Positions 1,168 to 31,607 of a stretch of 32,000 nt of DNA are shown here, one piece after another (the first letter of the stretch is position 1; every line of letters begins with the position of its first letter). The stretch covers positions 16,103 through 48,102 of the forward strand of contig JBBIMK010000017.1 in NCBI GenBank assembly GCA_037444445.1. Direction: 5' to 3'. Source of the stretch: a bacterium (GTDB taxonomy: Bacteria > UBP7 > UBA6624 > JBBIMK01). The notes below the pieces were generated by a model. It ran no database searches. It had not been told where the DNA came from and worked only from the letters and a program-made list of their open reading frames with translations. The position numbers and the translations under genes are program-made.

Positions 1168-1292
1168 TCTCTCACCTGCCTCAGGGGGATAAAAACTGAT
1201 TCCCTTCTTCCATCTTCTTCCCCTCTCCCCTGCTTTTCATCGTTTGGATTCTGAATCACCAGAACTTGTCCCAGATTCCTGATTTTTTAACC

Positions 1293-1976: not shown

Positions 1977-2018
1977 TCTGCCTTTCCTTTTACCCAACCC
2001 TGACTCCGACTGGTTGAT

Positions 2019-2762: not shown

Positions 2763-2810
2763 TTCTTCACCACCTCTTGTTATAGCAATTACCATTATAC
2801 ACCATTTTAA

Positions 2811-2858
2811 CAGGAGAAAGAAATGACACCTTTTGGGGTCAGGCACCAAACGGTGTCA
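2811..2858 (-). terminator. intrinsic terminator candidate after the OstA-like gene
   Basis: Hairpin with 2824-2830 pairing 2852-2858 (7 bp) and 2832-2836 pairing 2846-2850 (5 bp), a 9-nt loop and one 1x1 mismatch. On the minus strand it is followed by TTTCTTTCT. It lies 12 nt after the stop at 2870. Confidence 0.45.
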
Positions 2859-2869
2859 CATCTGATTTT

Positions 2870-5236: not shown

Positions 5237-5314
5237 CCTCTATTATTTTACCCCGGAAATTTCGTGCAGTGAAGGGCTACCTGCTCCCCCACCTGAAGTG
5301 AACAGGTAATTCTC

Positions 5315-15416: not shown

Positions 15417-17030
15417 TTACAGACTCCGCTGATAGGATGCGGGCTCGAGTTTCCACACAGGTATGCCACAGTAGCGTTCCCCTTCCGGGCAGAAGGGTCG
15501 CACACCGGCTAACTGGCGAACCCCGCAGGGGGGAAGCAGGTACCTTCCGATGCGGGGGTTCACCTCCTGTATCTGCAGAACCTCATTCAGGGAGGCTCGC
15601 CAGATTTCTTCCTGAGCGTTGTAGCACAAACGAAGCGTGTGCTTGTGCCAGAGATTCAGCAGGTCCGCCGTTTCCGTGAAGCGGATGGACACCGCATTGG
15701 GAAGAAGGTAACTCGCTTCCGCTACCCCCACACCCCTCTTTCGGAGAGAAAGGATTGCTTCCCAGACCCTCTCCATCGTCTCCTGATATAGCACTCGGGC
15801 TTCATCCCGCTTGAGAATAAGGTCGGGGGTAATATAATCGGGCTCTTCCGACAGATGGAACGACAGCAGGGGGCGGGATGCCGGTGTCATCCGATGCCTC
15901 TGGTCCTGAGAATCCGCCGTGTGAGACAGTTTCTTCCGAAAGGTCCAGGAAGGGTGAACCATTGCCCGGGAAAGCTTGGTCATGCTGGTGAGATTCAGGG
16001 ATTCTCCCAGATACCGGTTCTGAGAAGGGTCCATCACCAGCCGAATCGCTTCATCATCCGACATCGCCGACGAGGGTAGCCCCAGCACTTCCCGTACCGC
16101 CCGGGCTAACAGGATTTCATTCTCCGGTTTATAACTTACCAGTCTGGATACCTTCCCCTTCAGGCTTGCATCAAACTCCTCGCGGAAGGCTTTCTGATGT
16201 GGGTAAGCGGTAGCAGGCCACAGACAACCGGTTAGAGGCTGAAAAAAACGATACTCCGGGGTCTCTTCCAGAGGAATGGGCTCCTGTAGGATTTCTTGAT
16301 AAGAAGGGTCTGCTCGCAACAATTCGTCCCGCATCTTCTGAACCACCACCTTCTGCTCTACTGGCGCATCCAGTTGCTCACAAACCCGATGATACCGAAG
16401 CAAAGTGATGCCGTTAATCGTATGGTACATATAGGTAAAGGTGGCTACTGGAAGGAGATAACGGGCAATTTCTATGGCTTTTCTGTGAATCCCCCGACGC
16501 CACTTCCTGTTTTCCTGGCTACGCCCGGGAAAAATCTTAAAATATTCCGATTCTACCACGGGAAGTAACATTTCTGTCAGACGACGATACGCCTCCATCT
16601 GGAGGCGTATCGTGTCCTCATAGCGCCCCAGAGAATCCCCCTTCAAAGCCGGAATAAAATAGCTCCCGGGCTTCACTTCCACATACCGCTGGCTCACTTG
16701 TTCGGAATTGTAGAATGGATGACTGTGGAGGAAGGACCAGACGAAGTGACGGGAAATTTTATTGAGGGCAAACTGGAAGTGAGCATGCTGATAAACGGTA
16801 TGGTGCCCTGCCCGATAGATGTCCCGAGCCAGCCTGTTTCTCTTCTCTATGATGCTCTTTTTTTCTTCCGGCTCCTGCAGTTCATCCCCCGCCACCTCCT
16901 CCGGCGAGATTATCCCCCTGGAGGAGTAGCAGGTGCGAGCGGATGCGATGGCGAAATCAAACGGACGATAAAAACTATTCACCAGTATCACCTCCGGCTC
17001 GGGAGATAGAAATGAAGGCGTTTTCATCAT
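15417..17030 (-). CDS. thyX: ThyX-family (flavin-dependent thymidylate synthase-like) protein, tandem two-domain long form
   Basis: 537 aa. Half 1: GHHTVYQHAHFQFALNKISRHFVWSFLHSHPFYNSEQVSQRY. Half 2: HPSWTFRKKLSHTADSQDQRHRMTPASRP ... YLLPNAVSIRF ... RLCYNAQEEIW. Both resemble the ThyX core (HETPFEH..FTF..RHR..S..S.RY ... R....AQ.EI) as I recall it from T. maritima. Confidence 0.6.
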   Translation of the reverse strand: MMKTPSFLSPEPEVILVNSFYRPFDFAIASARTCYSSRGIISPEEVAGDELQEPEEKKSIIEKRNRLARDIYRAGHHTVYQHAHFQFALNKISRHFVWSFLHSHPFYNSEQVSQRYVEVKPGSYFIPALKGDSLGRYEDTIRLQMEAYRRLTEMLLPVVESEYFKIFPGRSQENRKWRRGIHRKAIEIARYLLPVATFTYMYHTINGITLLRYHRVCEQLDAPVEQKVVVQKMRDELLRADPSYQEILQEPIPLEETPEYRFFQPLTGCLWPATAYPHQKAFREEFDASLKGKVSRLVSYKPENEILLARAVREVLGLPSSAMSDDEAIRLVMDPSQNRYLGESLNLTSMTKLSRAMVHPSWTFRKKLSHTADSQDQRHRMTPASRPLLSFHLSEEPDYITPDLILKRDEARVLYQETMERVWEAILSLRKRGVGVAEASYLLPNAVSIRFTETADLLNLWHKHTLRLCYNAQEEIWRASLNEVLQIQEVNPRIGRYLLPPCGVRQLAGVRPFCPEGERYCGIPVWKLEPASYQRSL

Positions 17031-17721: not shown

Positions 17722-18660
17722 TTACTCTTTCGGCAGGGCTTCAAAATAAATACTACGGGTCTCCCACAGGAGAACTCGGCGAAGAACGACCCGGGTTTGA
17801 CCGGGTATTGAAAGGGCAGGCAATGCCTCCTTTATTCCCTGAAAGAGGTATCCTGCAATGTGCTCTCCCGTAGGATTATGGGTTTGAAAGTAGGGAACTT
17901 CCACATCCAGCCGTTTGTGGTCCAGTTCATTCAGTATCTTCTGAACGGTAGCATTTAGAGGGTCCAGGGGAACTCCCACTCCTGTTACGGGTGAGGGAAC
18001 CGCTTCCACTGTGGCTTCCAGAATATAATCGTGACCGTGGCCCTTCTCTCGCCCGCACTTCCCGAAAATTCGGAAATTTTGTGCAGAAGACAGATGGGGC
18101 GCCCACAGGCGATGCGCCGCAGAAAAACCATACTTCCTCGTAAGCCCTACCCCGCCAGGCTCCCTCTGGCTCCCCGCCTCCTTCCTCCCTCTTCCTTTCT
18201 CTAATATCCCTGCTTTTTCCTCCCCGTAATATTCCACATACAGGTCATCCGTTTCATAGAGTTTCAGCCGATGAAGGAAAATACCTCTGGGCAGTTTCTT
18301 TTCAATCTTTCCCCACAACACCTTGCAAAGATTCTCGGTAGTGGGCTGGATATTCTTAAAGTAGGGCGTTTCTTCGTTCAAAAACCGGTGGTCAAACTCC
18401 TCCAGAACCCGATTCACCAGGTTCTTCAACTCTGTCACATTGAGTATCATACCCGTCTCAGGATTCACAGGCCCGGACACCGTGACCTCTAACAGGTAGT
18501 TGTGTCCGTGTCCATACGGGCTCACACACTTCCCGAACACCCTTCGGTTCTTTTTTTCCGTCCACGCCGGATTCCAGTAACGATGGGAGGCGGAAAATTC
18601 AAACCGCCTGGTTAAGCAAATCTTCACATCAGGGGTTTCGGGTAGTTCCTTTCTTTTCAT
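17722..18660 (-). CDS. tandem-fused 6-pyruvoyl-tetrahydropterin synthase / QueD-family protein (two complete modules)
   Basis: Trimmed to ATG 18660 (MKRKELPE), 6 nt after the upstream stop. Module 1: FSASHRYW...FGKCVSPYGHGHNYLLEVTV...EFDHRFLNEE...LYETD. Module 2: FSAAHRLW...FGKCGREKGHGHDYILEATV...ELDHKRLD...LWET. Both are close to mammalian PTPS GKCNNPNGHGHNY...DHKNLD. Confidence 0.8.
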   Translation of the reverse strand: MKRKELPETPDVKICLTRRFEFSASHRYWNPAWTEKKNRRVFGKCVSPYGHGHNYLLEVTVSGPVNPETGMILNVTELKNLVNRVLEEFDHRFLNEETPYFKNIQPTTENLCKVLWGKIEKKLPRGIFLHRLKLYETDDLYVEYYGEEKAGILEKGRGRKEAGSQREPGGVGLTRKYGFSAAHRLWAPHLSSAQNFRIFGKCGREKGHGHDYILEATVEAVPSPVTGVGVPLDPLNATVQKILNELDHKRLDVEVPYFQTHNPTGEHIAGYLFQGIKEALPALSIPGQTRVVLRRVLLWETRSIYFEALPKE

Positions 18661-18665
18661 AAATT

Positions 18666-19556
18666 TTATCTTGCACTCTGCACCCTGCCACGGGCTATGT
18701 TCACTTCCACCTGATACCGGCGGTATGCCACCACAAACCCCCAATACAGGTTCATCGGAACCAGAAACATCCACAGGGCATAGTCGGGATGCCCTGCAAA
18801 AGCCCAGAGAGTGACCAGGAGGATTTGAAAACCGAGAGCCAGAGGGCTGACCAGGGTCAGGAAGGAAGGTGTAACCTCCCCGGGTGCGGAAACGCCCTCC
18901 ATTGTCGTCTTCTCCAGAAATTGCATCAGCCGGTCCTGCCAGCCGTAAATGATGGCATACAGCCGCTTCAAAAAAGAGAGTAGGTGAGGATTATCCCCGG
19001 TGAGAGCAAAATTTTCTGTTTCATCTACCCGGCTGGTGGTATCCCCCTCTGTCTGCTTCCGATACACCACGGAATAGTAGTTATAATAGGAACACTGAAG
19101 CGTAGCAAATAGCAGAGCCAGAAGGGCAAAAATCAGATGATGCGGGGCAATGGCAACAAAGACCAGCAGGTTAATGAAAAAATCGGCGAGGGAATCCAGA
19201 AATCGTCCAACGCGAGAAGGAGTTGAACGAGCCCTCGCCAGGGAGCCATCCACCGCATCCAGGAGATTTTTGACCTGTAAGATCATCGCGCCAGCCACCA
19301 TCCTTCCCCGCCCCCCTCCCCGAAGCCCCCCCGTAAAGAAACACCAGGCTGAGAGCACCCCGAACACGGTGTAGACCCCCGTCACCCACCGGGGGGAAAT
19401 GGGCGTGGGCAAGAGCCACCGCACCAGAAGAACCGCCGCAGGACGAGCATAATCGCTCAAGTCCAGAAAACGGGAGGATGGAGGCACTTTCGCCCACCTT
19501 TCCGCTCCCCTCTCTCCACCTTTCTCATCCATTGCTTCCCCTTCTTTTCCTGTCAT
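18666..19556 (-). CDS. CDP-alcohol phosphatidyltransferase family protein
   Basis: DAVDGSLARARSTPSRVGRFLDSLAD matches D-x2-DG-x2-AR-x8-G-x3-D-x3-D. It is a multi-TM protein. Confidence 0.8.
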   Translation of the reverse strand: MTGKEGEAMDEKGGERGAERWAKVPPSSRFLDLSDYARPAAVLLVRWLLPTPISPRWVTGVYTVFGVLSAWCFFTGGLRGGGRGRMVAGAMILQVKNLLDAVDGSLARARSTPSRVGRFLDSLADFFINLLVFVAIAPHHLIFALLALLFATLQCSYYNYYSVVYRKQTEGDTTSRVDETENFALTGDNPHLLSFLKRLYAIIYGWQDRLMQFLEKTTMEGVSAPGEVTPSFLTLVSPLALGFQILLVTLWAFAGHPDYALWMFLVPMNLYWGFVVAYRRYQVEVNIARGRVQSAR

Positions 19557-19686: not shown

Positions 19687-22209
19687 ATGGATATTTCTGG
19701 ATTGCTGGCTCGTTTTCCGATAGAAAAGCCTCCCCTTGCCATTGAAAGGGCTGTCCGGCCTTCGGACTATTTTGATGTTCTCGGATTGAGGGCGGGGATT
19801 TTAGGAAATCAAAATGGGAATCTTCAGGTGTGGGTTTATCCCCTCAAAATCGCTCATGATATTCGTCTTTCCTTCCAGTTGGAAGGGGAAACGAATCCCG
19901 TTTCCGGCGAAGAACTTGCCACGACCCTTACCACTTTTCCTTCTCACTCCTCTCTCATCTACTCTCATGAAAAATGGAGGGTGAAAGAAATCTTTTTCGT
20001 TCCGAGAGAAGAGCCTGGAGCCCTGATTTTACTGGATGTGGATACTTCTAAACCCCTCACCATCCTCGTTCAGTTCGTGCCCGATATGCAGCCAATGTGG
20101 CCCGGGGGTCTGGGCGGGCAGTATTCTTACTGGGATGACAGCCTGAAAGCCTTCGTGATAGGAGAGGGGAGAGGGAAATTGTACAGCCTTCTGGGGTCGC
20201 CGGCTGGTCAACAGCCCTCTTACCCCCCCGCTCATGCTCTCCCCGATACACCCAATACCTTCCGAATAGAAGTAACCCCTGCGGATGCCAGAAAATTCTA
20301 TGTCCCTGTTGTCATCGCCGGCTCGGTAGAAGGGTGGGAGCAAACGAAGGACACTTACCAGTCTCTGTTGAAAAATGCAGAAGTCCTGTTCCGGGAACGG
20401 GAAACTTATTACCGGAAATTCTTGCAAGACGACACCGTTCGCGTGTTCACTCCAGACCCGGTTTTGAATGAGGCGGTGGAATGGGCAAAACTCGCTATGG
20501 ACGCCGGCCGGGTTTGTAACCCCCATTTAGGGTGCGGGCTGGTGGCTGGATATGGGCTGTCCGGAAAGGGCGCACGCCCGGGCTTCGCCTGGTTCTTCGG
20601 CGGCGACGCCTCCATCAATTCCCTTGCCATCCTCTCCTACGGACACTCCCCATCGGTAAAACAGGCTCTCCAATTCCAGATGAAGTATCAGCGCGAAGAT
20701 GGTAAAATCCCCCACGAAATCTCTCAGTCCGCAGGCTTCATCCCCTGGTTCACTGAGTATCCCTACCCCTACTATCACGGCGATACCACCCCGTGGTTCC
20801 TCATCTCTATGGCGGAGTATTACAAATACACCGGCGATGCCCGCTTTATCCAGTCCTCCCGGGAGAGCCTTTTGAAAGCCTACCGTTATTGCCTTTCCAC
20901 AGACACCGATGGGGATGGGCTGATGGAAAACACAAAAGCCGGACTGGCGGCTGTGGAGGAAGGCCCTCTCCGACAGCGAGTGCTGGTGGACATCTTCCTC
21001 GCCTCCGTATGGTTGGAAGCCCTGAAAGGGATTGCCCTATTAGCCGAGCCCCTCAACGACCCTCCCTTGAAGGATGAAGCACAGGAAATCGGGAAAAAAG
21101 CGGAAAAAACCTTCCTGAAGAACTTTTTTGAAGGCAGGGAATATCCCTATTTTGCCCTCTATGAGAAGGGAGGCGGGATTGATGAAATCACCGCCTGGCC
21201 CGCATTTCCCCTTGCCTTCCTCCAGATTCCAGATACCCTGGCGGAACCCATTCTCCAGCGCCTCTCAGCCGCAGATATGTTCTCCGACTGGGGGATTCAC
21301 TTCCTCTCCACGAAGAGTTCTGTATACGACCCGACACGATATAATGGGGGTGCGGTCTGGCCCTTTCTATCCGGCTTCGCAGTGTGGGCGCAATACCAGT
21401 ATCATCGCCCCTACGCGGGATATTCCGAGTTACAGGCCCTTGCAGGCTTGCATTTTTTCTCTGCTCCGGGTGCCGCTCATGAGGTCTTCTCCGGGGATTA
21501 TTTCCGCCCTCTGTTCGCCTCCGTTCCCCACCAGCTCTTCTCTTCAGGCTCCTTCTTAACCGCCTTCTATCGGGGGCTTTTAGGCGTGAACCTCAACGCC
21601 CACATTCACTCCCTCTCCTTCTCGCCTCATCTCCCTCCGCAATGGCACCGGATAGAGATTCAAAATATCTCCATCGGCACCAGCCGTGTGAATATCCAGA
21701 TGGAAAGAAACGAAAATCGCCGGGTAGTGCGGGTTCTAAAGCAGGGAACGACACCGGTCAATTTCCACTTCTCCCCCGCCTTCGGTATCGGAGCCAGGAT
21801 TTTGAATATCAAAGTCAACGGGAAACCCGTAAAATGGACGGTTCACGATACCGGGCTGGATTCTCATGCCACCGTGGAAGTCCCTCTCACCGAAAGAACC
21901 CTCATTGAAATGGAAGTGGAAGAAGGGATAGAAATTTTTTCACCGGTGTGGAAGCAGGAAACCGGCGCCCGCACATCCGGGCTGAAAATCCTTTCCGCCT
22001 CACGGAAGCATTCTTCTTTCTCCATTACCGTACAAGGCTTATCCGGGAACTCCTACGAATTGCAACTGTTTTTGCCCTATCCCCCGGAAAAGGTAGAAGG
22101 TGCCGAACTTCTTCTGCCGTCGGAGAATAAGACCTACCGCTTCCAATTCCATCTCCCACCCTCCGAACCCCCTGCTTCTATTTCCCACACCCTCACACTT
22201 TACCTCTAA
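19687..22209 (+). CDS. large (alpha/alpha)6-barrel-type glycoside hydrolase, glycogen-debranching (GDE_C)-like
   Basis: 840-aa ORF with a strong RBS. ARPGFAWFFGGDASINSLAIL...EDGKIPHE...GDTTPWFLISMAEYYKYTGD...DGDGLMEN resembles the amylo-alpha-1,6-glucosidase / GH15-63-like catalytic barrel. The exact family was not determined. Confidence 0.55.
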   Translation: MDISGLLARFPIEKPPLAIERAVRPSDYFDVLGLRAGILGNQNGNLQVWVYPLKIAHDIRLSFQLEGETNPVSGEELATTLTTFPSHSSLIYSHEKWRVKEIFFVPREEPGALILLDVDTSKPLTILVQFVPDMQPMWPGGLGGQYSYWDDSLKAFVIGEGRGKLYSLLGSPAGQQPSYPPAHALPDTPNTFRIEVTPADARKFYVPVVIAGSVEGWEQTKDTYQSLLKNAEVLFRERETYYRKFLQDDTVRVFTPDPVLNEAVEWAKLAMDAGRVCNPHLGCGLVAGYGLSGKGARPGFAWFFGGDASINSLAILSYGHSPSVKQALQFQMKYQREDGKIPHEISQSAGFIPWFTEYPYPYYHGDTTPWFLISMAEYYKYTGDARFIQSSRESLLKAYRYCLSTDTDGDGLMENTKAGLAAVEEGPLRQRVLVDIFLASVWLEALKGIALLAEPLNDPPLKDEAQEIGKKAEKTFLKNFFEGREYPYFALYEKGGGIDEITAWPAFPLAFLQIPDTLAEPILQRLSAADMFSDWGIHFLSTKSSVYDPTRYNGGAVWPFLSGFAVWAQYQYHRPYAGYSELQALAGLHFFSAPGAAHEVFSGDYFRPLFASVPHQLFSSGSFLTAFYRGLLGVNLNAHIHSLSFSPHLPPQWHRIEIQNISIGTSRVNIQMERNENRRVVRVLKQGTTPVNFHFSPAFGIGARILNIKVNGKPVKWTVHDTGLDSHATVEVPLTERTLIEMEVEEGIEIFSPVWKQETGARTSGLKILSASRKHSSFSITVQGLSGNSYELQLFLPYPPEKVEGAELLLPSENKTYRFQFHLPPSEPPASISHTLTLYL

Positions 22210-22562
22210 ACCGCCTCTGCGGTGATATAATTCCAGAGTGGTGGAAGCAGACGGGGTAATAAAATGGGAGCCCTCCCTTTCCAGCCTCCATCCTGCCACA
22301 TTCCGGCGCGGAGCAGGATTCCAGTTCCCATCAGAACCGTGTTCATTTCTCCCTCCCCGCAAAAACTTCTCTCACCCCGGAACCGTTGTGATGAAATGGG
22401 GGTGGGGAGGGAAAAGAAAAGTTGAAAAACTATGATGAAGAAAAGGATGTTGACCTGAAAATTCCGGTGTGAGTGTGTATTATCAGGAAGAAGTGCTTCC
22501 ACTGATGGAAGTTGCACGGGAATAAAGGGCATTCTTTTGTTGCGAGGTGAGGGGATAAATGG

Positions 22563-22591
22563 GGGGGCGTGGGAAAGTTTCCCACGCCCCC
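22563..22591 (-). terminator. GC-rich hairpin after the capsid gene (terminator-like, weak U-tract)
   Basis: A perfect 12-bp stem, GGGGGCGTGGGA (22563-22574) pairing TCCCACGCCCCC (22580-22591), with a 5-nt loop. It lies about 50 nt after the stop at 22644. The minus-strand tail is CCATTTAT, so there is no strong U run. Confidence 0.4.
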
Positions 22592-22643
22592 GACCCTGCC
22601 CCGGCTCCCCATCGCGAAGGGCGGGGCGAATGAGCGCCTGCGA

Positions 22644-24164
22644 TTATACGCTGGATGCGATGTTGTAGCCGATGCCGACGATTTTTTGCGTGGAAGCGTC
22701 CAGCCGGTCCACAAACCCGATGCGCTGGCTCGCCACAATCTCAATGGTTCCCGTCTTGATGTCCCGAAATGCCTCAATGAAAGCCATCCGACGGTTCCCA
22801 TAAATGAATCCCCGACGATATACCAGAGCGAGGATGGTTTTGTTCGTGGTGATGCCGTCGTAGACGCCATTGGCGTTCAAATCCTCTCGCACATATTCGG
22901 AGACGATGATGGGGATGCCGTCCAGCCTTCCCAGTTCCCCGTTGAGAAGAGTCGCCCGGGCTCCGTATTTGTCCACCGTGAGAACCACAGGATTGCCGGC
23001 AGAGTCCTTCAGGTTCAACAACTGGATGTAGCCACCGATGGAAACCACCCATGCCAGGTCGTTCGGGTCCACGCCATAGATACCAAGAGCACCGCGAAGG
23101 GTGCGCATCTTCTCCACGGTGAGGGTGCCGAGAAAATCTATCCTGGCACCACTCAGGGCTTTCTTCCGATACCCCTTCCAGGCTTTCCTGACATCGGTGG
23201 CCTCGGTGACATCGGAGTCCATGTGGGATGCGGAGTCATCGCCATTGATGGTGGCGTTCTCTATGCCGGCAGCCAGGGCGGAAACGATGTCGCTCTTAAT
23301 GACCGGCAGGAGAGCGAAAACGGAATCTTCCTCCAGTTCATAGGAGACGGGGACGAAGACGGCGAGGGTTCTGGCATCCAACGAAGCCTGCCCGGTCCCC
23401 AGCGCCGAGGAGGGCGGAGCCACATTCTCACTCTTCAGATAGGCCGTGGAAAAACCGGTTTGCCTCGGGAGTTTGAACGGGTCTGTGGGCATAGAAAGGT
23501 GCTCGTGAAGGGAAGCCACCTTCAACTGGAGTCGGACTTTTTCCACCAGTTCTGGTGAGAAGCCGGTGGGAATCCACTCTGCGCCAGCCCCCGGTGTTCC
23601 CGTGTCCATCGCCTTTCCCAGTTCCTCCACCTGGCGCAGGTAATCCTCCCACTTCCGCAAAAGTTGCGGGGGCTTCCCGAGGAGTGCGGAGGCGATGTAA
23701 AGGTCATCCGCTGTCTGCTGAACCCGTTGAACCTGCGGGTTTTGTGAAGATTTCTGCAGAATCTCTCCCGGCTTCATCCCCCCATCAGGAGAATCGGAAA
23801 CGGGAAATCCTCCCTTCCGGACCAGTTTGCCCTTGAAACTCTCCTCATACTTCAGAAGAGCCTGTGTGATAAGTTTCTCACCCTCTTCAGGCGAGAGGTT
23901 GTCAGAGGCGGCTTTTCGGGCAGCTTCCGCCACCAGCCGTGCCCCTTCCTCTGCTGTCAATGCGTTCTCCATAATTGGATTCACCTCCTTGTGTGAGTTT
24001 TCAGGATTTTCAAATTCTAAATTTTGTATGTCTTTCTCTGTTCCCCGGTGCCGTTTCAACAGGAGAAATTTCCGACGGTTAGCGGGTGAGTCCACCAGGC
24101 TCACCTCCTGAACCAGAAACTTCAGAACCTTCCTTCCCTTCTTCCTGCTTCCCTCTTCCATCAT
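22644..24164 (-). CDS. HK97-fold phage major capsid protein homologue with N-terminal scaffold/delta-like extension (orphan)
   Basis: The C-terminal ~320 aa (TGTPGAGAEWIPTGFSPELVEKV...VPVSYELEEDSVFALLP...ENATINGDDS...) read like PF05065-type capsid proteins. The N-terminal ~190 aa are charged and helical and contain EVSLVDSPANRRKFLLLK. AGGAGG (24179-24174) lies 9 nt before ATG 24164. The track start at 24194 is a GTG 10 codons upstream. Confidence 0.8.
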   Translation of the reverse strand: MMEEGSRKKGRKVLKFLVQEVSLVDSPANRRKFLLLKRHRGTEKDIQNLEFENPENSHKEVNPIMENALTAEEGARLVAEAARKAASDNLSPEEGEKLITQALLKYEESFKGKLVRKGGFPVSDSPDGGMKPGEILQKSSQNPQVQRVQQTADDLYIASALLGKPPQLLRKWEDYLRQVEELGKAMDTGTPGAGAEWIPTGFSPELVEKVRLQLKVASLHEHLSMPTDPFKLPRQTGFSTAYLKSENVAPPSSALGTGQASLDARTLAVFVPVSYELEEDSVFALLPVIKSDIVSALAAGIENATINGDDSASHMDSDVTEATDVRKAWKGYRKKALSGARIDFLGTLTVEKMRTLRGALGIYGVDPNDLAWVVSIGGYIQLLNLKDSAGNPVVLTVDKYGARATLLNGELGRLDGIPIIVSEYVREDLNANGVYDGITTNKTILALVYRRGFIYGNRRMAFIEAFRDIKTGTIEIVASQRIGFVDRLDASTQKIVGIGYNIASSV

Positions 24165-24354
24165 TTTTTCCAACCTCCTGCTATCATCCATCACAAGGCT
24201 ATGCGAAAAGTTCAGGTGGAAGCGGGTTCACCCCCCTAGGAGAGAAGGAAGGCGGAGTAGGGAACCACCTGAAGCCGTCCGCCTGTCAATGGGTTAACTA
24301 CTCTCAATCTTGCCCCCAATCCTCCGGCAGACCTTTGTGCTGACGGCATACAAC

Positions 24355-24383
24355 TTGACATCTTCAGGGTTGTATATTATAGT
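24355..24383 (+). promoter_or_regulatory. sigma70-like promoter immediately upstream of direct-repeat copy 1
   Basis: TTGACA (24355-24360), a 17-nt spacer, then TATAGT (24378-24383). The repeat starts at 24386. Confidence 0.45.
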
Positions 24384-24385
24384 AG

Positions 24386-24481
24386 AATTGTCATGCGACA
24401 GCAGGAGATTGACGGTATTTATGAAATTCGCCAGATTGCAGGTGAAAGTGCTTCCCCGAGGGGGAAAATCGGAAGTGGTGG
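24386..24481 (+). repeat. direct repeat copy 1 (96 bp, identical to 25471-25566)
   Basis: Base-by-base comparison: aattgtcatgcgacagcaggagattgacggtatttatgaaattcgccagattgcaggtgaaagtgcttccccgagggggaaaatcggaagtggtgg is identical in both copies. Confidence 0.95.
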
Positions 24482-24504
24482 TGCAAGTAGGTGAGAAAAT
24501 ATGA
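24421..24504 (+). pseudogene. 5' fragment of the DUF167 gene (codons 1-20 duplicated, then 7 novel codons), acting as a 27-codon upstream ORF
   Basis: [20 protein letters not shown] is identical to the start of the intact DUF167 gene at 25506. It then reads VQVGEKI and stops. Stop TGA 24502-24504 overlaps ATG 24501-24503 of the next gene (ATGA). Confidence 0.6.
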
Positions 24505-24758
24505 ATGAAGAGGAAAAAGAGAAGAAGGGTAAGATTGCCCGAATAGAGAATTTCGGATACGGAATTATTGTAGATGAAGAAGGAAAGGAATACTTTTTCA
24601 CATTAGATAAGGTAGAAGGGTATCAGGGTCAAACCGTGCAAGCCCTCAGGTGGAAGAAAGGGAATCCCGTTCACTTTTCTATCCAGAATGGTAAAGTATC
24701 TTCCGTGAAAGTCCTGAAAAACTCTGACAAAGTGAAGGGATTAGTGATTGCCCCCTGA
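24501..24758 (+). CDS. small cold-shock-domain/OB-fold-like protein
   Basis: 85 aa with AGGTGA 6 nt upstream of the ATG. GKIARIENFGYGIIVDEEGKEYFF resembles the CSD RNP1/RNP2 arrangement (KGFGFI...VFVHF). It has an unusual acidic-lysine N-tail, MNEEEKEKKGK. Confidence 0.6.
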   Translation: MNEEEKEKKGKIARIENFGYGIIVDEEGKEYFFTLDKVEGYQGQTVQALRWKKGNPVHFSIQNGKVSSVKVLKNSDKVKGLVIAP

Positions 24759-25404
24759 CCCTTATCATTTCCTCGACCCCAGGAAGCCAGTTCACACACG
24801 AGAGATTCGCCCTGACAAGCCCTTGCCTCGCCATATTCGCAAATTTGGTTACCTGCCAGACGCAGGTTTCTTACTGCCAGGAGACCTGATTCTGGTTCAT
24901 AACCTGAAACTCCCTTACTTTTCTAAGGCTATTGTGAGTGCTCAGAGAAATGGAGGATATCAGGAAGAAGATGCCAGATGGCATCATGCGGCAGTGTACA
25001 TAGACGGCTATCTAATTTGTGAGGCTCAACTTTCTGGGGTAAAGACGGATTACCTTTATCAATACATTCCTACCCATTTGATTCGTATCAGGCGTGATGT
25101 ATCTCTTCTGCCGGATGACAGATGGAAAATCGTTGTAAACGCCTTGAGGAAACTTCGTGAGCCATACGGATTCCGGTCCATTGTAGCCCTCTATTGGCAA
25201 AGCAAAATTGGATTCTGGAGGCCAATTCTGAGGTTTGGATATACCCGTGGAGTCATCTGCTCTCAGCTTTACGCGGAAGCCTACTCACTGGTAACCCACC
25301 GGCTGCTTGTTCCTGGAACCCTCGGGCGTCCAACCCCTGCGGATTTGAGTTTAACACCGGTATTGACAGATATTCCCATAGATTGGATAAAACTCCAGGT
25401 TTGA
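24748..25404 (+). CDS. permuted papain-like (NlpC/P60 superfamily, YiiX/YaeF-type) hydrolase
   Basis: 218 aa with a TTG start, the only start after an in-frame TGA, and GAAGGGA upstream. It overlaps the previous gene by 11 nt. Motif order PGDLILV..SKAIV..WHHAAVYI..ICEA..REPYGF..VICSQLYAEAY parallels E. coli YiiX (TGDIIFQ..SKAIQ..YSHTGMLV..VFEA..GKPYDF..YCSEVVWKVY). No signal peptide. Confidence 0.65.
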   Translation: MPPDPYHFLDPRKPVHTREIRPDKPLPRHIRKFGYLPDAGFLLPGDLILVHNLKLPYFSKAIVSAQRNGGYQEEDARWHHAAVYIDGYLICEAQLSGVKTDYLYQYIPTHLIRIRRDVSLLPDDRWKIVVNALRKLREPYGFRSIVALYWQSKIGFWRPILRFGYTRGVICSQLYAEAYSLVTHRLLVPGTLGRPTPADLSLTPVLTDIPIDWIKLQV

Positions 25405-25439
25405 TGTCTTCTCATACTGTATGTGGTTTTCTGAAAGAT

Positions 25440-25473
25440 TTGACAATACGCCTGGAATGTGCTACTTTATAAT
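25440..25473 (+). promoter_or_regulatory. promoter candidate upstream of direct-repeat copy 2 / DUF167-ileS
   Basis: TTGACA (25440-25445), a 17-nt spacer, then TACTTT. A perfect TATAAT also sits at 25468-25473. The TTGACA ends exactly 25 nt before the repeat, as in copy 1. Confidence 0.35.
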
Positions 25474-25566
25474 TGTCATGCGACAGCAGGAGATTGACGG
25501 TATTTATGAAATTCGCCAGATTGCAGGTGAAAGTGCTTCCCCGAGGGGGAAAATCGGAAGTGGTGG
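25471..25566 (+). repeat. direct repeat copy 2 (96 bp, identical to 24386-24481)
   Basis: See copy 1. This copy runs into the full-length DUF167 gene. Confidence 0.95.
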
Positions 25567-25784
25567 GCTACCGGGATGGAATCCTCACCATCAGAGTTAA
25601 CGCTCCTGCTGAACGCGGTAAAGCCAATTCGGAGTTAATTCGCTTCCTCCATCGGCGCCTGAGAGTCTCTCCTCAAATCCTTCGTGGTGAATTCTCCCGG
25701 CATAAAGTTCTGACCATTCCAGACCTGACCCTTTCGGAAGTCTTAAAACTTCTGAATATACCCCACACATCCCGGGAGGGATAA
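25506..25784 (+). CDS. DUF167 (YggU-like) family protein
   Basis: 92 aa from ATG 25506. [44 protein letters not shown] parallels E. coli YggU LRLYIQPKASRDSIVG...[22 protein letters not shown]. The track start at 25473 is an upstream TTG. Confidence 0.8.
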
Positions 25785-25786
25785 AG

Positions 25787-28711
25787 ATGCTTACGGATTA
25801 CAAGAAGACCTTGAACTTGCCGAAGACAGAATTTGCCATGCGAGGGAACCTGGTGAAGCGGGAGCCGAAACTGATTGCCTTCTGGCAGGAAATCGGTCTG
25901 TATGAAAAAATCATCCAATTGAGGGAAAATGCACGCAAAGAACACAAAATCTTTATCCTTCACGATGGACCCCCTTATGCCAACGGCGACATCCATGCTG
26001 GCCATGTCCTGAATAAAGTTCTCAAGGACATCGTGGTCAAGTTCCGCCTGATGCAGGGGTTTTATTCTCCTTATGTGCCCGGCTGGGACACCCATGGCTT
26101 GCCCACCGAGCAGGAAGTCATTAAGAAATTCGGATTAGACAGAAAAGCGGTCTCTCCCTTACAGTGGCGGAGAAAATGCAAGGACTTCGCTGAGATGTAT
26201 GTGGAACGCCAGCGAGAGCAATTCATCCGCCTCGCCTGCCTCGGCGACTGGAAGAATCCTTACCTCACCTACGACCCCGCTTATGAAGCCAGAGAAATAG
26301 AAATCTTAGGAACGCTGGGTGAAAAAAATCTCCTGTATCGGAAGAAGAAACCCATCTACTGGTGCGCCGGTTGTGAAACCGCCCTCGCTGAGGCAGAGAT
26401 TGAATATGAAGATGTGCCTTCCCCCTCCATTTATGTGGCTCTCCCGCTGGAATTACCTTTGCGATTGGAAGCCCGGGGTAGTGTTCCCGCCTCATTCGTC
26501 ATCTGGACCACGACGCCCTGGACCCTGCCAGCCAATCTGGCTGTTGCCCTTCATCCCTCTGCCAGTTATTCCCTCTACCACACGGAAAAAGGGAATTTTA
26601 TTGTGGCAGATGCCCGATGGCAGGAGTTCTCTGAAAAAGCGGGCATCCCAATTTGGGAAAAGTGGATGTCCTGGAATGGAAGCCACCTGAAAACCCTTCG
26701 GTATTTCCATCCAGTTGTGGGTAATCCCCAATCTAAAAGGCTGGGGCTTCCTGAGATTTTTCAAGAAATGAAAAAATATCCTGAACTTTTTCGTGAAAAA
26801 TATCCTGAACTTTTTGAGAAAGAATATACCGGAACTATCCAGCAAGTCATTACTTCCGAGATGGTGGATTTGTCCACGGGCACAGGGATAGTTCATATCG
26901 CCCCGGGGCACGGGGAAGAAGATTATCACATCGGGCTGGAAAATAACCTGCCTGTCTTCTCCCCCCTGGATGATGAAGGGAAATTCACCCTTCCCGCTGG
27001 CACTGGCTTTGATTTCATAGATGGGAAATTTTACGAGGATGCAAACCCCTTGATTTTAGACAGGCTGAGGGAGGCGGGAAACTTACTCCATCAGGAAGAA
27101 ATCATTCACTCTTATCCCCACTGCTGGCGGTGTAAAAAAGCGGTGATTTTCCGTGCCACCCCCCAGTGGTTTTTAGATATAGACAAAATACGGGACGCCC
27201 TGATTCAGGGTGCAGAAGCCATTCAATGGCATCCTGCCTGGGGGAAGGAGAGGCAGGTGAATATGCTGAAAGAGCGCCCGGATTGGTGTCTCTCCCGCCA
27301 GCGAGTGTGGGGCGTTCCTCTTCCTGTTTTCTACTGCCAGTCTTGCCGGATGCCCATTCTCTCCACAGCCAGTGTTGCCCGCCTGGTGGAACGGGTTCGC
27401 CAGCGCGGGGTGGATGTGTGGTGGCAAGAACCAGCAAAAGAACTGTTGCCTGCCGGGTTCATCTGCCCTCATTGTGGCGGTGAAAACTTTGAGAAGGAGA
27501 AGGACATCGTGGATGTCTGGTTTGATTCCGGCGTCTCCCACTTCGCTGTCCTCCAGCAGAGGCAGGAACTCCGCTGGCCCTGCGAGTTATACCTGGAGGG
27601 CACCGACCAGTATCGGGGATGGTTCCAGACCTCGCTGACCACTGCCGTAGCGGTGGCGGATACCCCCCAGACCCGCCAGGTCCTCACCCACGGCTTCGTC
27701 GTGGACGAAGAAGGCAGAAAAATGTCCAAATCCCTTGGAAATGTCGTTGACCCACAGGAGGTCCTGAAGTCCTTCGGCGCCGAAATCCTCCGCCTCTGGA
27801 CCGTTTCCTCTGACTTCACCTCCGATGTAAAAATCTCCCCCGAAATCCTTTCCAAAGTCGCTGACGGATACCGCAAAATTCGGAATACCTTCCGCTTCCT
27901 CCTCGGCAATCTATATGACTTTGATACCTCCCTCCTCCTCCCTTACGAAGAACTCCGAGAAGTTGACCGGTGGGCGCTTCATTCTCTTTCCCATCGGATT
28001 CGTCAGTTGACCGAGCAGTATGAAAATTACCAGTTTGATGCCGTTTTTCGCACTCTCTACCAATACTGCACCGTAGACCTGTCCTCCTTTTATCTGGACA
28101 TATTGAAGGACCGATTATACACCTTTCCCGCAGATTCCAGCGCCCGTCGCTCCGCCCAAACCGCTTTTTACCACATTCTCAATGCCCTGCTCCGGCTCAG
28201 CGCTCCCATCCTTTCCTTCACGGCGGAGGAAGCCTGGCAGGCTTTTGGTGCGAATCAAGAGCGCCCCTCCAGCGTTTTCCTCGCGAATTTCCCCACTCCA
28301 CAGCCGGATTGGGAAGACAGCCGATTGGAAAGCCGTTGGAACACCCTTCTTTCCCATCGGTCACGTGTCAACCGAGCCCTGGAGCAGGCAAAAAATCAGG
28401 GCTGGATTCGTTCCCCTATGGAGGCTTTTATCACCCTCTACGCCGATGAAAACCAGGAAGCATTCCTCCGCTCCTTCTCCCCGCAAGAACTGGAAGAGGT
28501 TTTCAACACTTCTGGTGTGAGGGTGGAGCCTTTGAAAGCCCTCCAGGAAGAAATGATTGAGTCGGAAACGAGAGAAGAAGGTGTGGTGGTGAGTGTGGAG
28601 CGGAGTGCAGGCGAAAAATGCGCCCGATGCTGGAAACGCTACCGCTCCGTAGGACTGAATCCGGCTTACCCAGACCTCTGCCATCGCTGCATCTCCTGCC
28701 TCACCACCTGA
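25787..28711 (+). CDS. ileS: isoleucine--tRNA ligase
   Basis: 974 aa with [12 protein letters not shown] (HIGH), KMSKS, a CP1 editing region and a C-terminal CARCW...CHRCISC zinc knuckle. The ATG lies 2 nt after the DUF167 stop, with a GGGAGGG RBS. Confidence 0.95.
26772..26819 (+). repeat. in-frame 24-bp tandem duplication inside ileS
   Basis: aaaaatatcctgaacttttt occurs at 26772-26791 and again at 26796-26815, with period 24. It encodes [16 protein letters not shown]. Confidence 0.9.
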
Positions 28712-28727
28712 ACCAATCTTCTTCCGG

Positions 28728-29621
28728 GTGATGTGTTACAATGCCAGAGGGATGAAAGCCGGGAAGGAATTGATTGAAAGAGCCCTGGCGGAAGACCGAG
28801 TCCGGCAGGATAAAACCTCCTTCGCTCTCTTCCCGGAAGAACATCACAGTGTGGCTTTTCTGATAGCCGGCGCCACCGGCGTGCTATCGGGAATGGAGGT
28901 GGCCAGGCAGGTATTCCAGGCAGTGGATAGAAACATCCAATTCCAGGCATTCAGAAGAGATGGAGAATCGGTCAGAAAGGGCCTGAAGATTGCCCGACTG
29001 AAGGGGAGAACACGAAGCCTTTTATCCGCAGAACGAGTGGCACTGAACTTCCTGATGCACCTGTCGGGAATCGCCACTCTCACGGCGAAGTTTGTTAAAG
29101 TCCTACAGGGAACTCCTGTCATCCTTCTGGATACCCGTAAGACCTTACCCGGCTTACGCATGCTGGAGAAATACGCTGTCCGCTGTGGCGGGGGCAAAAA
29201 TCATCGGATGAACCTCGCTGAGGCTATCCTCCTGAAATCCAACCATATTCGGGCTTTCGGCTCCATTTCCGATGCGGTTATGCTGGCACGAAAAAAATAT
29301 CCCCGAATGTGGATTGAGGTGGAAGTGCAGAACCTGAAGGAATTTCAGGAAGCCCTGAAAACATCCGCCGACCGCATTATGCTGGATAATTTTTCCCTCC
29401 CCTGCCTGCGAAAAGCGGTTGCGCTCAGCCGAAAAAGAACCCCGGCAAATCCCATACCCCTGGAGGCTTCCGGTGGAGTCACCCTGAAGAACGCTCGTCG
29501 CATGGCACGCATCGGGGTGAATTTCATTTCCGCAGGCGTTCTCACCCACTCCGCACCCGCCTTGAATATCTGTATGAAAATCGTCAGAGGAAAGGCTTCA
29601 CCCTCTCTGTCAATGAGGTGA
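28728..29621 (+). CDS. nadC: nicotinate-nucleotide pyrophosphorylase (quinolinate phosphoribosyltransferase)
   Basis: AERVALNFLMHLSGIATLT, LDTRKTLPGLRMLEKYAVRCGGGKNHR and IMLDNF are NadC signatures. The start is ambiguous between GTG 28728, ATG 28731 and ATG 28752. Confidence 0.9.
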   Translation: MMCYNARGMKAGKELIERALAEDRVRQDKTSFALFPEEHHSVAFLIAGATGVLSGMEVARQVFQAVDRNIQFQAFRRDGESVRKGLKIARLKGRTRSLLSAERVALNFLMHLSGIATLTAKFVKVLQGTPVILLDTRKTLPGLRMLEKYAVRCGGGKNHRMNLAEAILLKSNHIRAFGSISDAVMLARKKYPRMWIEVEVQNLKEFQEALKTSADRIMLDNFSLPCLRKAVALSRKRTPANPIPLEASGGVTLKNARRMARIGVNFISAGVLTHSAPALNICMKIVRGKASPSLSMR

Positions 29622-29628
29622 TTTTCTG

Positions 29629-30531
29629 ATGAGAAAATGGTTTGAGTGTGTGCCCAATGTGAGCGAAGGAAGACGACCGGAGGTGATTCGGGAAATCCAG
29701 AATGCTATCCAATCAGTGAAAGGAATTAAACTTCTGGATGTGGAGTCGGACAGCGACCACAATCGGAGTGTATTCACTTTCGCCGGCCCGAAAGAGCCGG
29801 TCAAGGAAGCAGTATATCAACTGGTGGACATAGCCATCCGGCGTATTGACCTGCGAGAGCATAAAGGGGAACATCCAAGGATTGGTGCGGTGGATGTGAT
29901 TCCCTTCGTCCCTCTCTGGGATGCCACCGTAGAAGAAGCCATTGTTCTGGCGAAAGAAGTGGGCGAGCATCTGGCGAACACCTACTCTTTGCCCATCTAT
30001 TTCTACGAGGATGCAGCCTCAGCACCCCATCGTCGTAACTTATCGGACATCCGACAGGGGGAGTTTGAAGGGCTGGCAGAGAAGATGAAAAAGCCAGAGT
30101 GGAAGCCAGACGCAGGGCCTGAAGAACCGCACCCCACTGCCGGCGCTACCGTCGTGGGCGCCCGTTTCTTCCTCATCGCCTATAACATCTACCTCGGCAC
30201 CACCGATGTGTCCATCGCCAGGAAGATTGCACGGGCAATCCGGGCTTCCGATGGTGGATTCGCTTATGTAAAAGCCCTCGGCTTTGAAATCAAACAACGG
30301 AATCTGGTTCAGGTGAGCATGAACCTGGTGGACTACCGAAGAAGCCCAATGCACCGCGTCTTTGAACTGGTTCGCCTGGAGGCGGAACGATACGGCGTTC
30401 CCATCGTTTCCTCAGAAATCGTGGGCCTGGTCCCTCTGGATGCCATTGTCGCCGCCGCCGACCACTTCCTCCGACTGGAAAATTTCTCCAAAAAGCAAAT
30501 CTTAGACTTTCAACTGCTAAAAAATGAATAA
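29629..30531 (+). CDS. ftcD: glutamate formimidoyltransferase (FTCD N-terminal-type)
   Basis: MRKWFECVPNVSEGRRPEVI is the hallmark N-terminus of formiminotransferases. 300 aa, with GAGGTGA 8 nt upstream. Confidence 0.85.
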   Translation: MRKWFECVPNVSEGRRPEVIREIQNAIQSVKGIKLLDVESDSDHNRSVFTFAGPKEPVKEAVYQLVDIAIRRIDLREHKGEHPRIGAVDVIPFVPLWDATVEEAIVLAKEVGEHLANTYSLPIYFYEDAASAPHRRNLSDIRQGEFEGLAEKMKKPEWKPDAGPEEPHPTAGATVVGARFFLIAYNIYLGTTDVSIARKIARAIRASDGGFAYVKALGFEIKQRNLVQVSMNLVDYRRSPMHRVFELVRLEAERYGVPIVSSEIVGLVPLDAIVAAADHFLRLENFSKKQILDFQLLKNE

Positions 30532-30569
30532 CGGAATGGCTTCCGAGTATAATAAAACTGGAGGCAAAG

Positions 30570-30947
30570 TTGGCGGTCATTGAAAAGAAGATAGAGTTAG
30601 CAGGCTCCCGTGGAAAGGAAGAGGTGGTTGCCCTTTTTGATTCCAGTGCCACCTATTCCTGCATCCAGCCCGAACTGGCAGAAAAACTGGAAATGACAAC
30701 CCCCTTGCCAGAGCCGATGGAATTCGGAACCGCAGAAACAGAAAAGAAGGTCACCGCTTGCCATCGGGTGGTTTTGAACTTCTACCTCAATGGTTATCTT
30801 TTCTCCGATGAATTTATGATTATTCCAAACCTGTCAGAGCCTGTGAATACCGGTGTCGCTACCCTGCAGAAGTGGCGGATAAAACTGGATTTTGAGAACG
30901 ACGAGGTCATCATTGACCCGAGAGTCACCAAACTCCACCTCCTCTAA
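30570..30947 (+). CDS. small retropepsin-like (clan AA) aspartic-protease-fold protein, DSS variant
   Basis: 125 aa with a TTG start 5 nt after GGAGG. VVALFDSSATYSCIQPELAEKL and GVATLQKWRIKLDFEN match the layout of single-domain retropepsin-like proteins, but the D-T/S-G triad reads D-S-S. Confidence 0.5.
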   Translation: MAVIEKKIELAGSRGKEEVVALFDSSATYSCIQPELAEKLEMTTPLPEPMEFGTAETEKKVTACHRVVLNFYLNGYLFSDEFMIIPNLSEPVNTGVATLQKWRIKLDFENDEVIIDPRVTKLHLL

Positions 30948-31028
30948 CTGGTTACCAGTTACCGGATGCCTGTTGCCAGTGGAAGTCCCTTCTCTTCCTA
31001 CAAGTCTTGTAAAAGGAGGATTGGAAAG

Positions 31029-31607
31029 ATGGACTTAGAAGCATACCTGAAGGATTTATCCTCTTCATCGCCGGCACCTGGCGGTGGGAGTGCATCTGCC
31101 CTTACGGGCGCCATCGCCGCTTCTTTGAACTCTATGGTGGCTTCCATCACGGCGAAGAAAAAGCCAGAACTGGAGGAAATCGGTCAAAAAGCCCGTGACA
31201 TTCGTGATGACCTCTTACGCTTAATGGAGCAGGACACCTCCGCATTCCTCTCTTTGATGAAAGCGTTCAAAGAAAAGAACGAATCCGAGATAGCCCACCG
31301 GGTGAAAGAAGCGGCTACCGTTCCCCTAACCACTGCGGAGAAATCCCTTCAGGCTCTCGTGCTGGCAGTGGAACTTCTCCAGAAAGGTTCTAAAAGCGTC
31401 TTCACTGACTCTGCGGGAGCGGGGTTCTTAGCCTGGGCCGCCGTCCGCTCCGCCCTCCTTAATGTCCTCATCAACCTCCCCTCTATGAAAGACGAAGCCC
31501 TGAAGGCTCATCTAAAAGAGAAAACAAACGCCTGCATCCGAAAATCCGATGAACTCCTCCAGGAAGTGATTCAACAATCGGAGGCTTTCTTCGCCCCGAA
31601 AACTTGA
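31029..31607 (+). CDS. formiminotetrahydrofolate cyclodeaminase (FTCD C-terminal-type)
   Basis: Trimmed to ATG 31029, with AAGGAGG upstream. LEAYLKDLSSSSPAPGGGSASALTGAIAASLNSMVA is the cyclodeaminase/FchA-family signature. Confidence 0.85.
   Translation: MDLEAYLKDLSSSSPAPGGGSASALTGAIAASLNSMVASITAKKKPELEEIGQKARDIRDDLLRLMEQDTSAFLSLMKAFKEKNESEIAHRVKEAATVPLTTAEKSLQALVLAVELLQKGSKSVFTDSAGAGFLAWAAVRSALLNVLINLPSMKDEALKAHLKEKTNACIRKSDELLQEVIQQSEAFFAPKT

Follow-up and report, generated by a model that had tools for sequence, protein, structure and literature searches.

The 32-kb stretch of contig JBBIMK010000017.1 analysed here (the window) contains two identical direct repeats, R1 and R2, each holding the 5' end of the DUF167 gene of the DUF167-ileS operon, and together bracketing a two-gene cassette composed of open reading frames (ORFs) A and B. 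Comparison with related contigs suggests that R2 is the original copy and R1 an ectopic one, that recombination between R1 and R2 deletes the cassette, and that a single-repeat contig from another assembly (L006) represents the resulting allele. We consider this account, which invokes ordinary recombination rather than a new mobile element, to be probable.

The repeats at 24386-24481 and 25471-25566 are identical at 96 of 96 positions, and their similarity extends 3 nt further left, to 24383 and 25468, giving 99 nt with one mismatch (TAGAAT versus TATAAT). Searching the window for the 96-mer with up to 3 mismatches returned exactly two copies, with 0 expected from 100 shuffles. Each repeat (R) comprises a 35-nt leader with AGGAG, then the first 20 codons and 1 further nt of DUF167, the ATG lying at 24421 in the first copy and at 25506 in the second. 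Beyond the repeat, copy 2 reads into the complete DUF167 gene and then ileS, and copy 1 into a chimeric ORF of 27 codons. The alignment bore out what a first-pass annotation, made from the sequence, had described: the 96-bp identity, the content of the repeat, and the pairing of a truncated copy 1 with an intact copy 2. The right junction of R1 (GGTGG/TGCAAG) shows 0-1 nt of microhomology. The 27-codon ORF may be translated, and its translation may be coupled to that of ORF A. The features of the repeats and of the operon are as follows.

24386..24481, plus strand: R1, the putatively derived, ectopic copy of the DUF167 leader, ribosome-binding site (RBS), ATG and first 20 codons (from 24383 if TAG is counted), recognised by its identity to R2
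25471..25566, plus strand: R2, the putative original copy in its native context, contiguous with promoter P2 and the rest of DUF167, as in the relatives L010 and L011
24421..24504, plus strand: chimeric 27-codon ORF, 20 DUF167 codons plus VQVGEKI, whose TGA stop overlaps the ORF A ATG as ATGA
24482..24500, plus strand: junction J1b between R1 and TGCAAGTAGGTGAG, then the native ORF A leader and RBS; the leader aligns with AAAGTAGAAGGTGAGAAAAAATG of the relative L007
25506..25784, plus strand: intact DUF167 (YggU family; Pfam PF02594, E=6.7e-16; TIGR00251)
25787..28711, plus strand: ileS, isoleucyl-tRNA synthetase (IleRS), downstream of DUF167 in the same operon (Pfam tRNA-synt_1, E=6e-128; Anticodon_1; zf-FPG_IleRS)

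Each copy is preceded by a TTGACA hexamer ending exactly 25 nt upstream (24355-24360 and 25440-25445). The intervening bases, already noted in the first-pass annotation as unrelated, match at 7 of 25 positions by manual count. These hexamers belong to two distinct predicted promoters, which match each other at 13 of 31 positions.

24355..24383, plus strand: P1, predicted sigma-70-type promoter of the cassette itself, TTGACA-17-TATAGT, agreeing with the consensus at 11 of 12 positions and identical in L006
25439..25468, plus strand: P2, predicted native promoter of DUF167-ileS, TTGACA-17-TACTTT, with a decayed -10 box and the 11-mer TTTGACAATAC in common with L010/L011

To which gene each promoter originally belonged can be read from more distant relatives. 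L010 and L011, the only other DUF167 relatives found (84% amino acid identity in DUF167), have the order purE, then ...TTTGACAATACACGGATGGTGTGCTATTATAGAATTGTTATGCGAGAGCAGGAG..., then DUF167 and ileS, and the sequence upstream of the operon runs TTTGACAATAC...TATTATAG, then AATTGT...R, then DUF167-ileS. BLAST homology between the window and L010 starts exactly at 25439, the TTTGACAATAC of P2, and continues through R and ileS, with 83 of 96 positions matching in R and 80.3% identity in ileS (80% at the nucleotide level for DUF167-ileS). Because the homology with L010/L011 begins at P2, with a different context upstream, P2-R2-DUF167 appears to be the ancestral linkage. The TAG before R1 also matches L010/L011, and the TAT found before R2 would represent one substitution since the duplication.

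The -10 box of P2 agrees with the consensus at 3 of 6 positions in the window (TACTTT) versus 5 of 6 in L010/L011 (TATTAT), a decay that may reflect relaxed selection once P1 lay upstream. No terminator-like site was predicted after 25302, the stretch from ORF B to P2 included, and transcription from P1 may thus already run through and feed ileS expression in the window. All four promoters have the same layout, TTGACA-17-hexamer-2 nt with AATTGT or the leader after it, and an in-register TAG at the P1/R junction is common to P1 (TATAGTAG) and ancestral P2 (TATTATAG). An 8-nt microhomology between P1 and P2, TATTATAG, was considered and set aside, being out of register; TAG is the only in-register sequence that they share. 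We also observed that a G>T change between L010 (9958-9968) and the window (25463-25473) makes a perfect TATAAT 5 nt downstream of the P2 -10 box, at a non-canonical 22-nt spacing from the -35 box.

The closest relative of the cassette, L007, is a 1,162-bp contig from the same metagenome as L010, with 74% amino acid identity in ORF B and 77.5% nucleotide identity over window 24486-25433. It carries TTGACATCTTTTCAGTAGTATATTATA directly 5' of the ORF A RBS, matching window P1 (24355-24381) at 22 of 27 ungapped positions, and contains no R sequence, none lying between the promoter and ORF A. When 24383-24481 was removed in silico, the window and L007 aligned as one colinear block of 990 columns with 77.3% identity, reaching from P1 as far as the end of the cassette, and this alignment scored better than those of two alternative deletions. 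The spacing from TATATTATA to the ORF A ATG was 23 nt both in L007 and in the window minus R1 (manual count). Because P1 adjoins ORF A in L007 without R, and P2-R2 is kept in L010/L011, we take R1 to be the derived copy, inserted into the 5' leader of the cassette, and P1-ORF A to be an ancestral linkage. A 5-nt AGTAG target duplication (24381-85 and 24487-91) was tried as another description of the insertion and rejected, as it aligned worse to L007 than the simple removal of 24383-24481. L007 and L010 have no sequence in common, so the cassette does not lie next to DUF167 there.

The allele without the cassette, L006, is a 6,224-bp contig of Logan assembly SRR11582170, obtained from the 90% clusters of window DUF167 and IleRS, each of which had one further member. 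Positions 1-510 of L006 align with window 23971-24481 (95.1% identity), and positions 412-6224 with window 25468-31280 (96.4%, ungapped), and what the two blocks have in common is precisely the 99-nt repeat. Relative to the window, L006 lacks 1,085 bp, the cassette and P2 among them, and keeps P1 and a single R copy. Left of the repeat, L006 1-411 and window 23971-24382 are identical in 388 of 412 columns; the flanking genes of the two alleles are 3.2-5.5% divergent, and a single one of the 96 positions in R differs. The P1/R junction, occurring here in an independent run and assembler, is not specific to the window assembly.

The first-pass annotation had anticipated an empty site in relatives, and L006 does hold one R without the 1,085 bp; it carries P1, not P2, and is most simply read as the deletion product of R1 x R2 recombination rather than as an ancestral empty site, because the P2-R contiguity common to the distant L010/L011 could not be re-created from L006. 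In this allele ileS would stand under the cassette promoter P1. The same promoter linkage speaks against the earlier proposal of a mobile unit of about 1.09 kb that brought a copy of its target along when it entered an ancestral empty site, with P2 evidently native to DUF167 and P1 to the cassette. Insertion of an R-carrying circle would be expected to leave the native promoter before copy 1 and the promoter of the element before copy 2, and the opposite is seen. Other searches yielded only remote relatives: an IleRS scan of genome contigs found one of 23% identity, a capsid scan of metagenome contigs (for the left neighbour, below) one of 39%, and a capsid homologue search none closer than 60%; no strain of the ancestral type could be recovered, nor could the capsid side from the organism of L007. 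Identical-protein look-ups with window DUF167, ORF A and ORF B gave no contig on record.

In the mechanism that we propose, R1 would duplicate the opening 96-99 nt of the DUF167-ileS transcription unit, starting at about the final base of the -10 box and ending at codon 20, and would lie between P1 and the ORF A RBS, within the 5' leader of a cassette that was acquired horizontally and was already in place, with R2 staying beside its native P2. A homologous crossover between R1 and R2 would then remove the cassette and P2 (1,085 bp), leaving P1-R-DUF167-ileS as in L006. With a promoter before each R copy, the essential ileS would be expressed in both states, the deletion allele using the near-consensus P1. 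That the last event ran in the direction of deletion is suggested by the promoter linkage only. The suggestion in the first-pass annotation that a leader module had been duplicated to drive new genes holds insofar as the leader and the 5' coding part were duplicated; the promoter was not.

R1 could have arisen along three routes. The copy may have been inserted in one step, its 96-99 nt being templated by the sequence 1 kb downstream. Alternatively, a tandem duplication of 24482-25566, which makes the R/ORF A junction, may have been followed by in-register deletion of the first copy through P1 x P2 microhomology at TAG. In the third route, a P1 x P2 deletion would produce an L006-like genome into which a circle with the R/ORF A junction was re-inserted in Campbell fashion; we rank this route lowest because it presupposes a window-like or duplicated genome elsewhere and transfer between cells. 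An RNA-mediated (reverse-transcribed) origin of R1 was also considered and discarded, as the predicted transcription start lies about 5-7 nt downstream of the first base of the copy.

Several observations weigh against this account. The P1-ORF A linkage comes from L007, a short contig of a lineage about 23% diverged, whose left flank is only patchily similar to the window. We found no strain with P1-cassette-P2-R-DUF167 and no R1, and J1b is seen in this one assembly only, its 17-mer being present in the window and nowhere else. R1 and R2 are identical although the flanks of the window and L006 differ by 3-6%, which calls for constraint, gene conversion or a more recent origin. The probability of zero R1/R2 differences is about 0.38 at the rate of R (about 1%) and about 0.02 at the rate of the flanks, so that constraint or gene conversion (the latter raised, besides a recent event, by the first-pass annotation) is possible without being required. 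L006 could in principle also have arisen directly from the ancestor by P1 x P2 microhomology deletion, and the window by re-insertion of a circle.

This last scheme belongs to the alternative that survives best, although we judge it unlikely: Campbell pop-in, in which a non-replicating 1,085-bp circle (R-ORF A-ORF B-P2) from another cell integrated at the lone R in a chromosome of the L006 type; the cassette would then move in and out between strains with no recombinase of its own. A single crossover would give exactly this geometry, a one-R allele exists, the circle would carry P2 reading into R as well as the cassette so that both products keep promoters, and an L006-like P1/R junction could form directly by in-register P1 x P2 microhomology deletion. 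However, the circle must already hold J1b, derived from a window-like or tandem-duplicated genome, and so presupposes the structure to be explained; at least three events are needed, including transfer between cells. Moreover, among about 15 billion proteins the cassette occurs at more than 55% protein identity in L007 only, a viral-contig scan with the ORF B profile found nothing, and no other locus has the cassette bracketed by target 5' ends.

A second alternative, which we hold to be quite unlikely, is that R1 is useful: the cassette would share the DUF167-ileS leader and mini-ORF and be co-regulated with the operon (for example by translation or isoleucine status), the identity of the repeats being kept by selection or gene conversion and the deletion allele being a by-product. 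The register of R1 relative to P1 is exactly that of R2 relative to P2, and the ATGA overlap of the 27-codon ORF with the ORF A start permits translational coupling. R also changes more slowly than its flanks, both between the window and L006 (1/96 versus 3-6%) and relative to L010 (86% identity in R versus 80% in DUF167-ileS), and a concerted change in a 24-nt ileS repeat (below) indicates that homogenisation of short repeats may occur in this lineage. Against this, an Rfam scan of 22000-26500, R included, matched no family, R is predicted to fold no better than shuffled sequence does (z=-0.4), and by inspection the small leader hairpin is not kept in L010. In addition, ORF A has its own RBS, the cassette lacks R in L007 and at all other loci, and L006 shows that the cassette is dispensable.

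We find it harder still to credit a broader proposal drawing on both alternatives, in which the 1,085-bp unit would be a recombinase-free pop-out/pop-in cassette re-entering any related chromosome through homologous recombination at DUF167, or in which, alternatively or additionally, the leader would put a defence-like or toxin-like hydrolase under the translational control of IleRS. If true, the excised circle would carry a promoter-leader copy of the 5' end of an essential operon, and ileS expression would never be interrupted. Finally, an assembly artefact, a metagenome loop or strain chimera making a false second R, is very improbable: the source is a single 48-kb NCBI contig, probably a metagenome-assembled genome, the 96-99-nt repeat is close to common maximum k-mer sizes, and J1b and the ORF B/P2 junction are seen in the window only, but the P1/R junction (J1a) was found independently in L006, a mix of R1-less and L006-like strains has no J1b k-mers from which a chimera could make J1b, the P1-R fusion with loss of P2 in L006 is hard to explain unless a P1...R...P2-R genome existed, and each junction has, on either side, sequence with homologues in real relatives.

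As for the content of the bracket, only two genes lie in it, a cold-shock-domain (CSD)-like ORF A and a papain-like ORF B, and the cassette does not appear to be a recombination module; the first-pass annotation had likewise reported no recombinase inside the bracket. GC content is 45.4% in the cassette versus 52.7% in the window, consistent with a horizontal origin.

24501..24758, plus strand: ORF A, 85-aa small beta-rich protein, tentatively CSD-like or OB-like (PADLOC CSD_V, E=2e-4)
24748..25404, plus strand: ORF B, 218-aa predicted cysteine hydrolase with a circularly permuted papain-like fold (NlpC/P60 superfamily, YaeF/YiiX-like fold)
25405..25438, plus strand: 3' untranslated end of the cassette, the last stretch homologous to L007, in which the BLAST alignment stops at 25433

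ORF A matched nothing in Pfam or in PDB sequence searches, a profile being used for the latter. Its match to the NCBIfam retron Se72 effector (E=2.6e-3, 17.7 bits) falls below the cutoff of 82, its single-sequence AlphaFold2 (AF2) model is all-beta with a predicted local distance difference test (pLDDT) score of only 60, and hhalign gave a probability of 55% against a Methylibium 'cold shock domain-containing protein'.

ORF B belongs to a family of about 57 proteins. Across 39 aligned homologues, H80, C171, D46, W78, E92 and R115 are invariant, the catalytic His (H80) standing ahead of the Cys (C171) as expected of a permuted papain fold; 25 of the 39 weakly match PF05708 (Peptidase_C92; best E 8.9e-6) and 13 match NLPC_P60. 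The window protein itself had no Pfam match at E<=0.1, and a PDB sequence search with the ORF B profile was negative. Its AF2 model (pLDDT 91) retrieved with Foldseek the Bacillus cereus cysteine peptidase 3kw0 and Escherichia coli YiiX 2if6 (probability 1.0, TM 0.53-0.64), followed by PLAAT/HRASLS proteins. On the basis of the invariant residues, the PF05708 and NlpC/P60 matches, the AF2 model and the structural matches in the PDB, ORF B is predicted to be a circularly permuted papain-fold enzyme and not a recombinase. It shares the permuted His-before-Cys order with YaeF/YiiX (Peptidase_C92) and with LRAT/PLAAT-like permuted NlpC/P60 enzymes (PMC3142127). It differs from YaeF/YiiX in falling below any Pfam threshold, with 15-18% identity to solved structures, and in that its family is always paired with a small cold-shock-like gene upstream, a pairing that our literature search did not find described. 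In the literature searched we likewise found no account of a DUF167-ileS leader element.

The pair of a small ORF and ORF B is kept at eight or more other loci. An ORF A homologue precedes the ORF B homologue in L001-L003, L004, L007 and L008/L009, and a small ORF occupies the position of ORF A in L017/L018, L019 and L016, the last being the conjugative megaplasmid of Methylibium petroleiphilum PM1, where RefSeq names the small protein 'cold shock domain-containing'. The expectation that the cassette would be found elsewhere flanked by the 5' ends of other genes was not borne out: at the eight other loci we found no comparable flanking repeats of neighbouring-gene 5' ends, and none of these loci adjoins DUF167, ileS or a capsid gene. 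In L001 (988-2141 and 3458-3533) the module has an IS3-family transposase pair on one side and a tRNA-Phe gene on the other, the context of a typical variable or integration hotspot; HNH, DUF4258 and MqsA genes surround it in L008, and ordinary chromosomal genes at the cyanobacterial loci. Among the phage collection, ORF B had as its only relatives peptidases of Streptomyces phages, about 30% identical.

In L008 and L009, the two-gene module and a neighbouring hydrolase gene are each bracketed by a GC-rich intergenic element of 40-120 nt, whose copies are 82-87% identical.

L009: intergenic element at 120-157, 1381-1495 and 3346-3460
L008: intergenic element at 2094-2214, 3910-3947 and 5165-5285

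No Rfam family matches this element. Folded as single-stranded DNA, it does better than shuffled sequence (z=-3.1) but does not form a single long attC-like hairpin, and it could be similar to repetitive extragenic palindromes or miniature inverted-repeat transposable elements, or to a cassette array.

On its left the cassette is flanked by a lone capsid gene, whose 5' end and a 160-nt spacer lead into P1.

22644..24194, minus strand: HK97-fold capsid gene, 516 aa (Pfam Phage_capsid, E=1.4e-16; TIGR01554)

This gene adjoins the cassette on one side and a glycoside hydrolase on the other, and the rest of the window is housekeeping in character, without further phage genes. Its nearest relatives, at 60% identity, are Peptidase_S78_2-capsid fusions of 708-716 aa; the window copy is shorter at its N-terminus, is without the protease part and may be a domesticated, encapsulin-like capsid or a remnant. 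Capsid relatives in 'bacterium JZ-2024 1' (L013-L015, 8001-10127) are likewise isolated, with cytochrome and housekeeping genes around them and a PF24163 (HCP) gene following. An imperfect inverted repeat of 49 nt, 73% complementary, pairs the pyrimidine-rich 5' region of the capsid gene (24131-24179) with the purine-rich start of ORF A (24486-24534) and is probably a low-complexity coincidence.

Within ileS we observed a 24-nt in-frame tandem duplication (window 26772-26819; L006 1716-1763) whose two copies have changed alike between the window and L006 (TTTTT/TTTTT versus TTTTC/TTTTC), which suggests homogenisation of short repeats in this lineage. Elsewhere in the window, ThyX (537 aa, 15417-17030, minus strand) and 6-pyruvoyl-tetrahydropterin synthase (350 aa, 17722-18774, minus strand) each match their Pfam domain in two stretches and appear to be internally duplicated or fused versions.

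Collectively, these findings offer what is probably a natural example of an ectopic duplication of about 100 bp making an accessory cassette unstable, in which loss of the cassette would rewire the promoter of an essential gene, moving ileS from its native, decaying P2 to the near-consensus P1. They also carry a caution for comparative genomics, in that an apparent single-repeat empty site can be a deletion scar rather than an ancestral target; only promoter-level comparison with more distant relatives revealed this reading. Reads in which P1-R is joined directly to GCTACCGGG, if present as a minority, would mean ongoing deletion, and the junctions of an excised circle would be identical to the chromosomal ones. 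The gene pair itself, a small cold-shock-like gene with a permuted papain-fold hydrolase, is widely scattered and uncharacterised, occurring on chromosomes and on a conjugative megaplasmid.

Compared with known systems, the structure resembles Campbell-type attL/attR elements that bring a replacement gene end, such as phages and islands in tRNA genes or gene termini, in its gene-end repeats around low-GC foreign DNA, its intact target and the existence of a single-repeat allele. It differs from them in three hallmarks, namely the presence of a recombinase, unit boundaries marked by the repeats, and occurrence at further targets. No recombinase or transposase was found in the bracket or among 26 other window ORFs searched against Pfam (a set that includes the longest ORFs and a minority of the short ones), and the window has no tRNA gene. 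The repeats do not mark the boundaries of a unit, as P1 and the left flank of the unit lie outside the bracket, P1 joining ORF A in L007, and P2 lies inside it, joining R-DUF167 in L010/L011. The cassette is not at other targets, and the single-copy site in L006 comes with P1 rather than P2, a promoter linkage opposite to that expected for insertion into an ancestral site. Transposons and insertion sequences, which make duplications of 2-15 bp and have terminal inverted repeats and a transposase, fit no better: the duplication here is 96-99 bp, too long for a transposase target duplication as the first-pass annotation had argued, the cassette ends carry no inverted-repeat pair, and there is no transposase. 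Of the features of integron cassettes, no integrase was found among the scanned window ORFs and no inverted repeat in 25405-25470.

The likeness is closest to RecA-dependent deletions between short repeats and to ectopic duplications, with two identical direct repeats of about 100 bp, of which one copy appears ancestral and the other secondary, and a natural one-copy allele, L006, that has precisely lost one copy and the intervening DNA. The 0-3 nt of microhomology at the window junctions is typical of illegitimate joins. In contrast to ordinary repeat deletions, the duplication here involves the 5' end of an essential operon, set in register behind a second promoter, so that the deletion would swap the ileS promoter and inactivate nothing; the event creating the ectopic copy is inferred. 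From these comparisons of sequence, the classification that fits best is an ectopic segmental duplication giving rise to direct repeats, together with a repeat-mediated deletion polymorphism, both of them well-known kinds of event.

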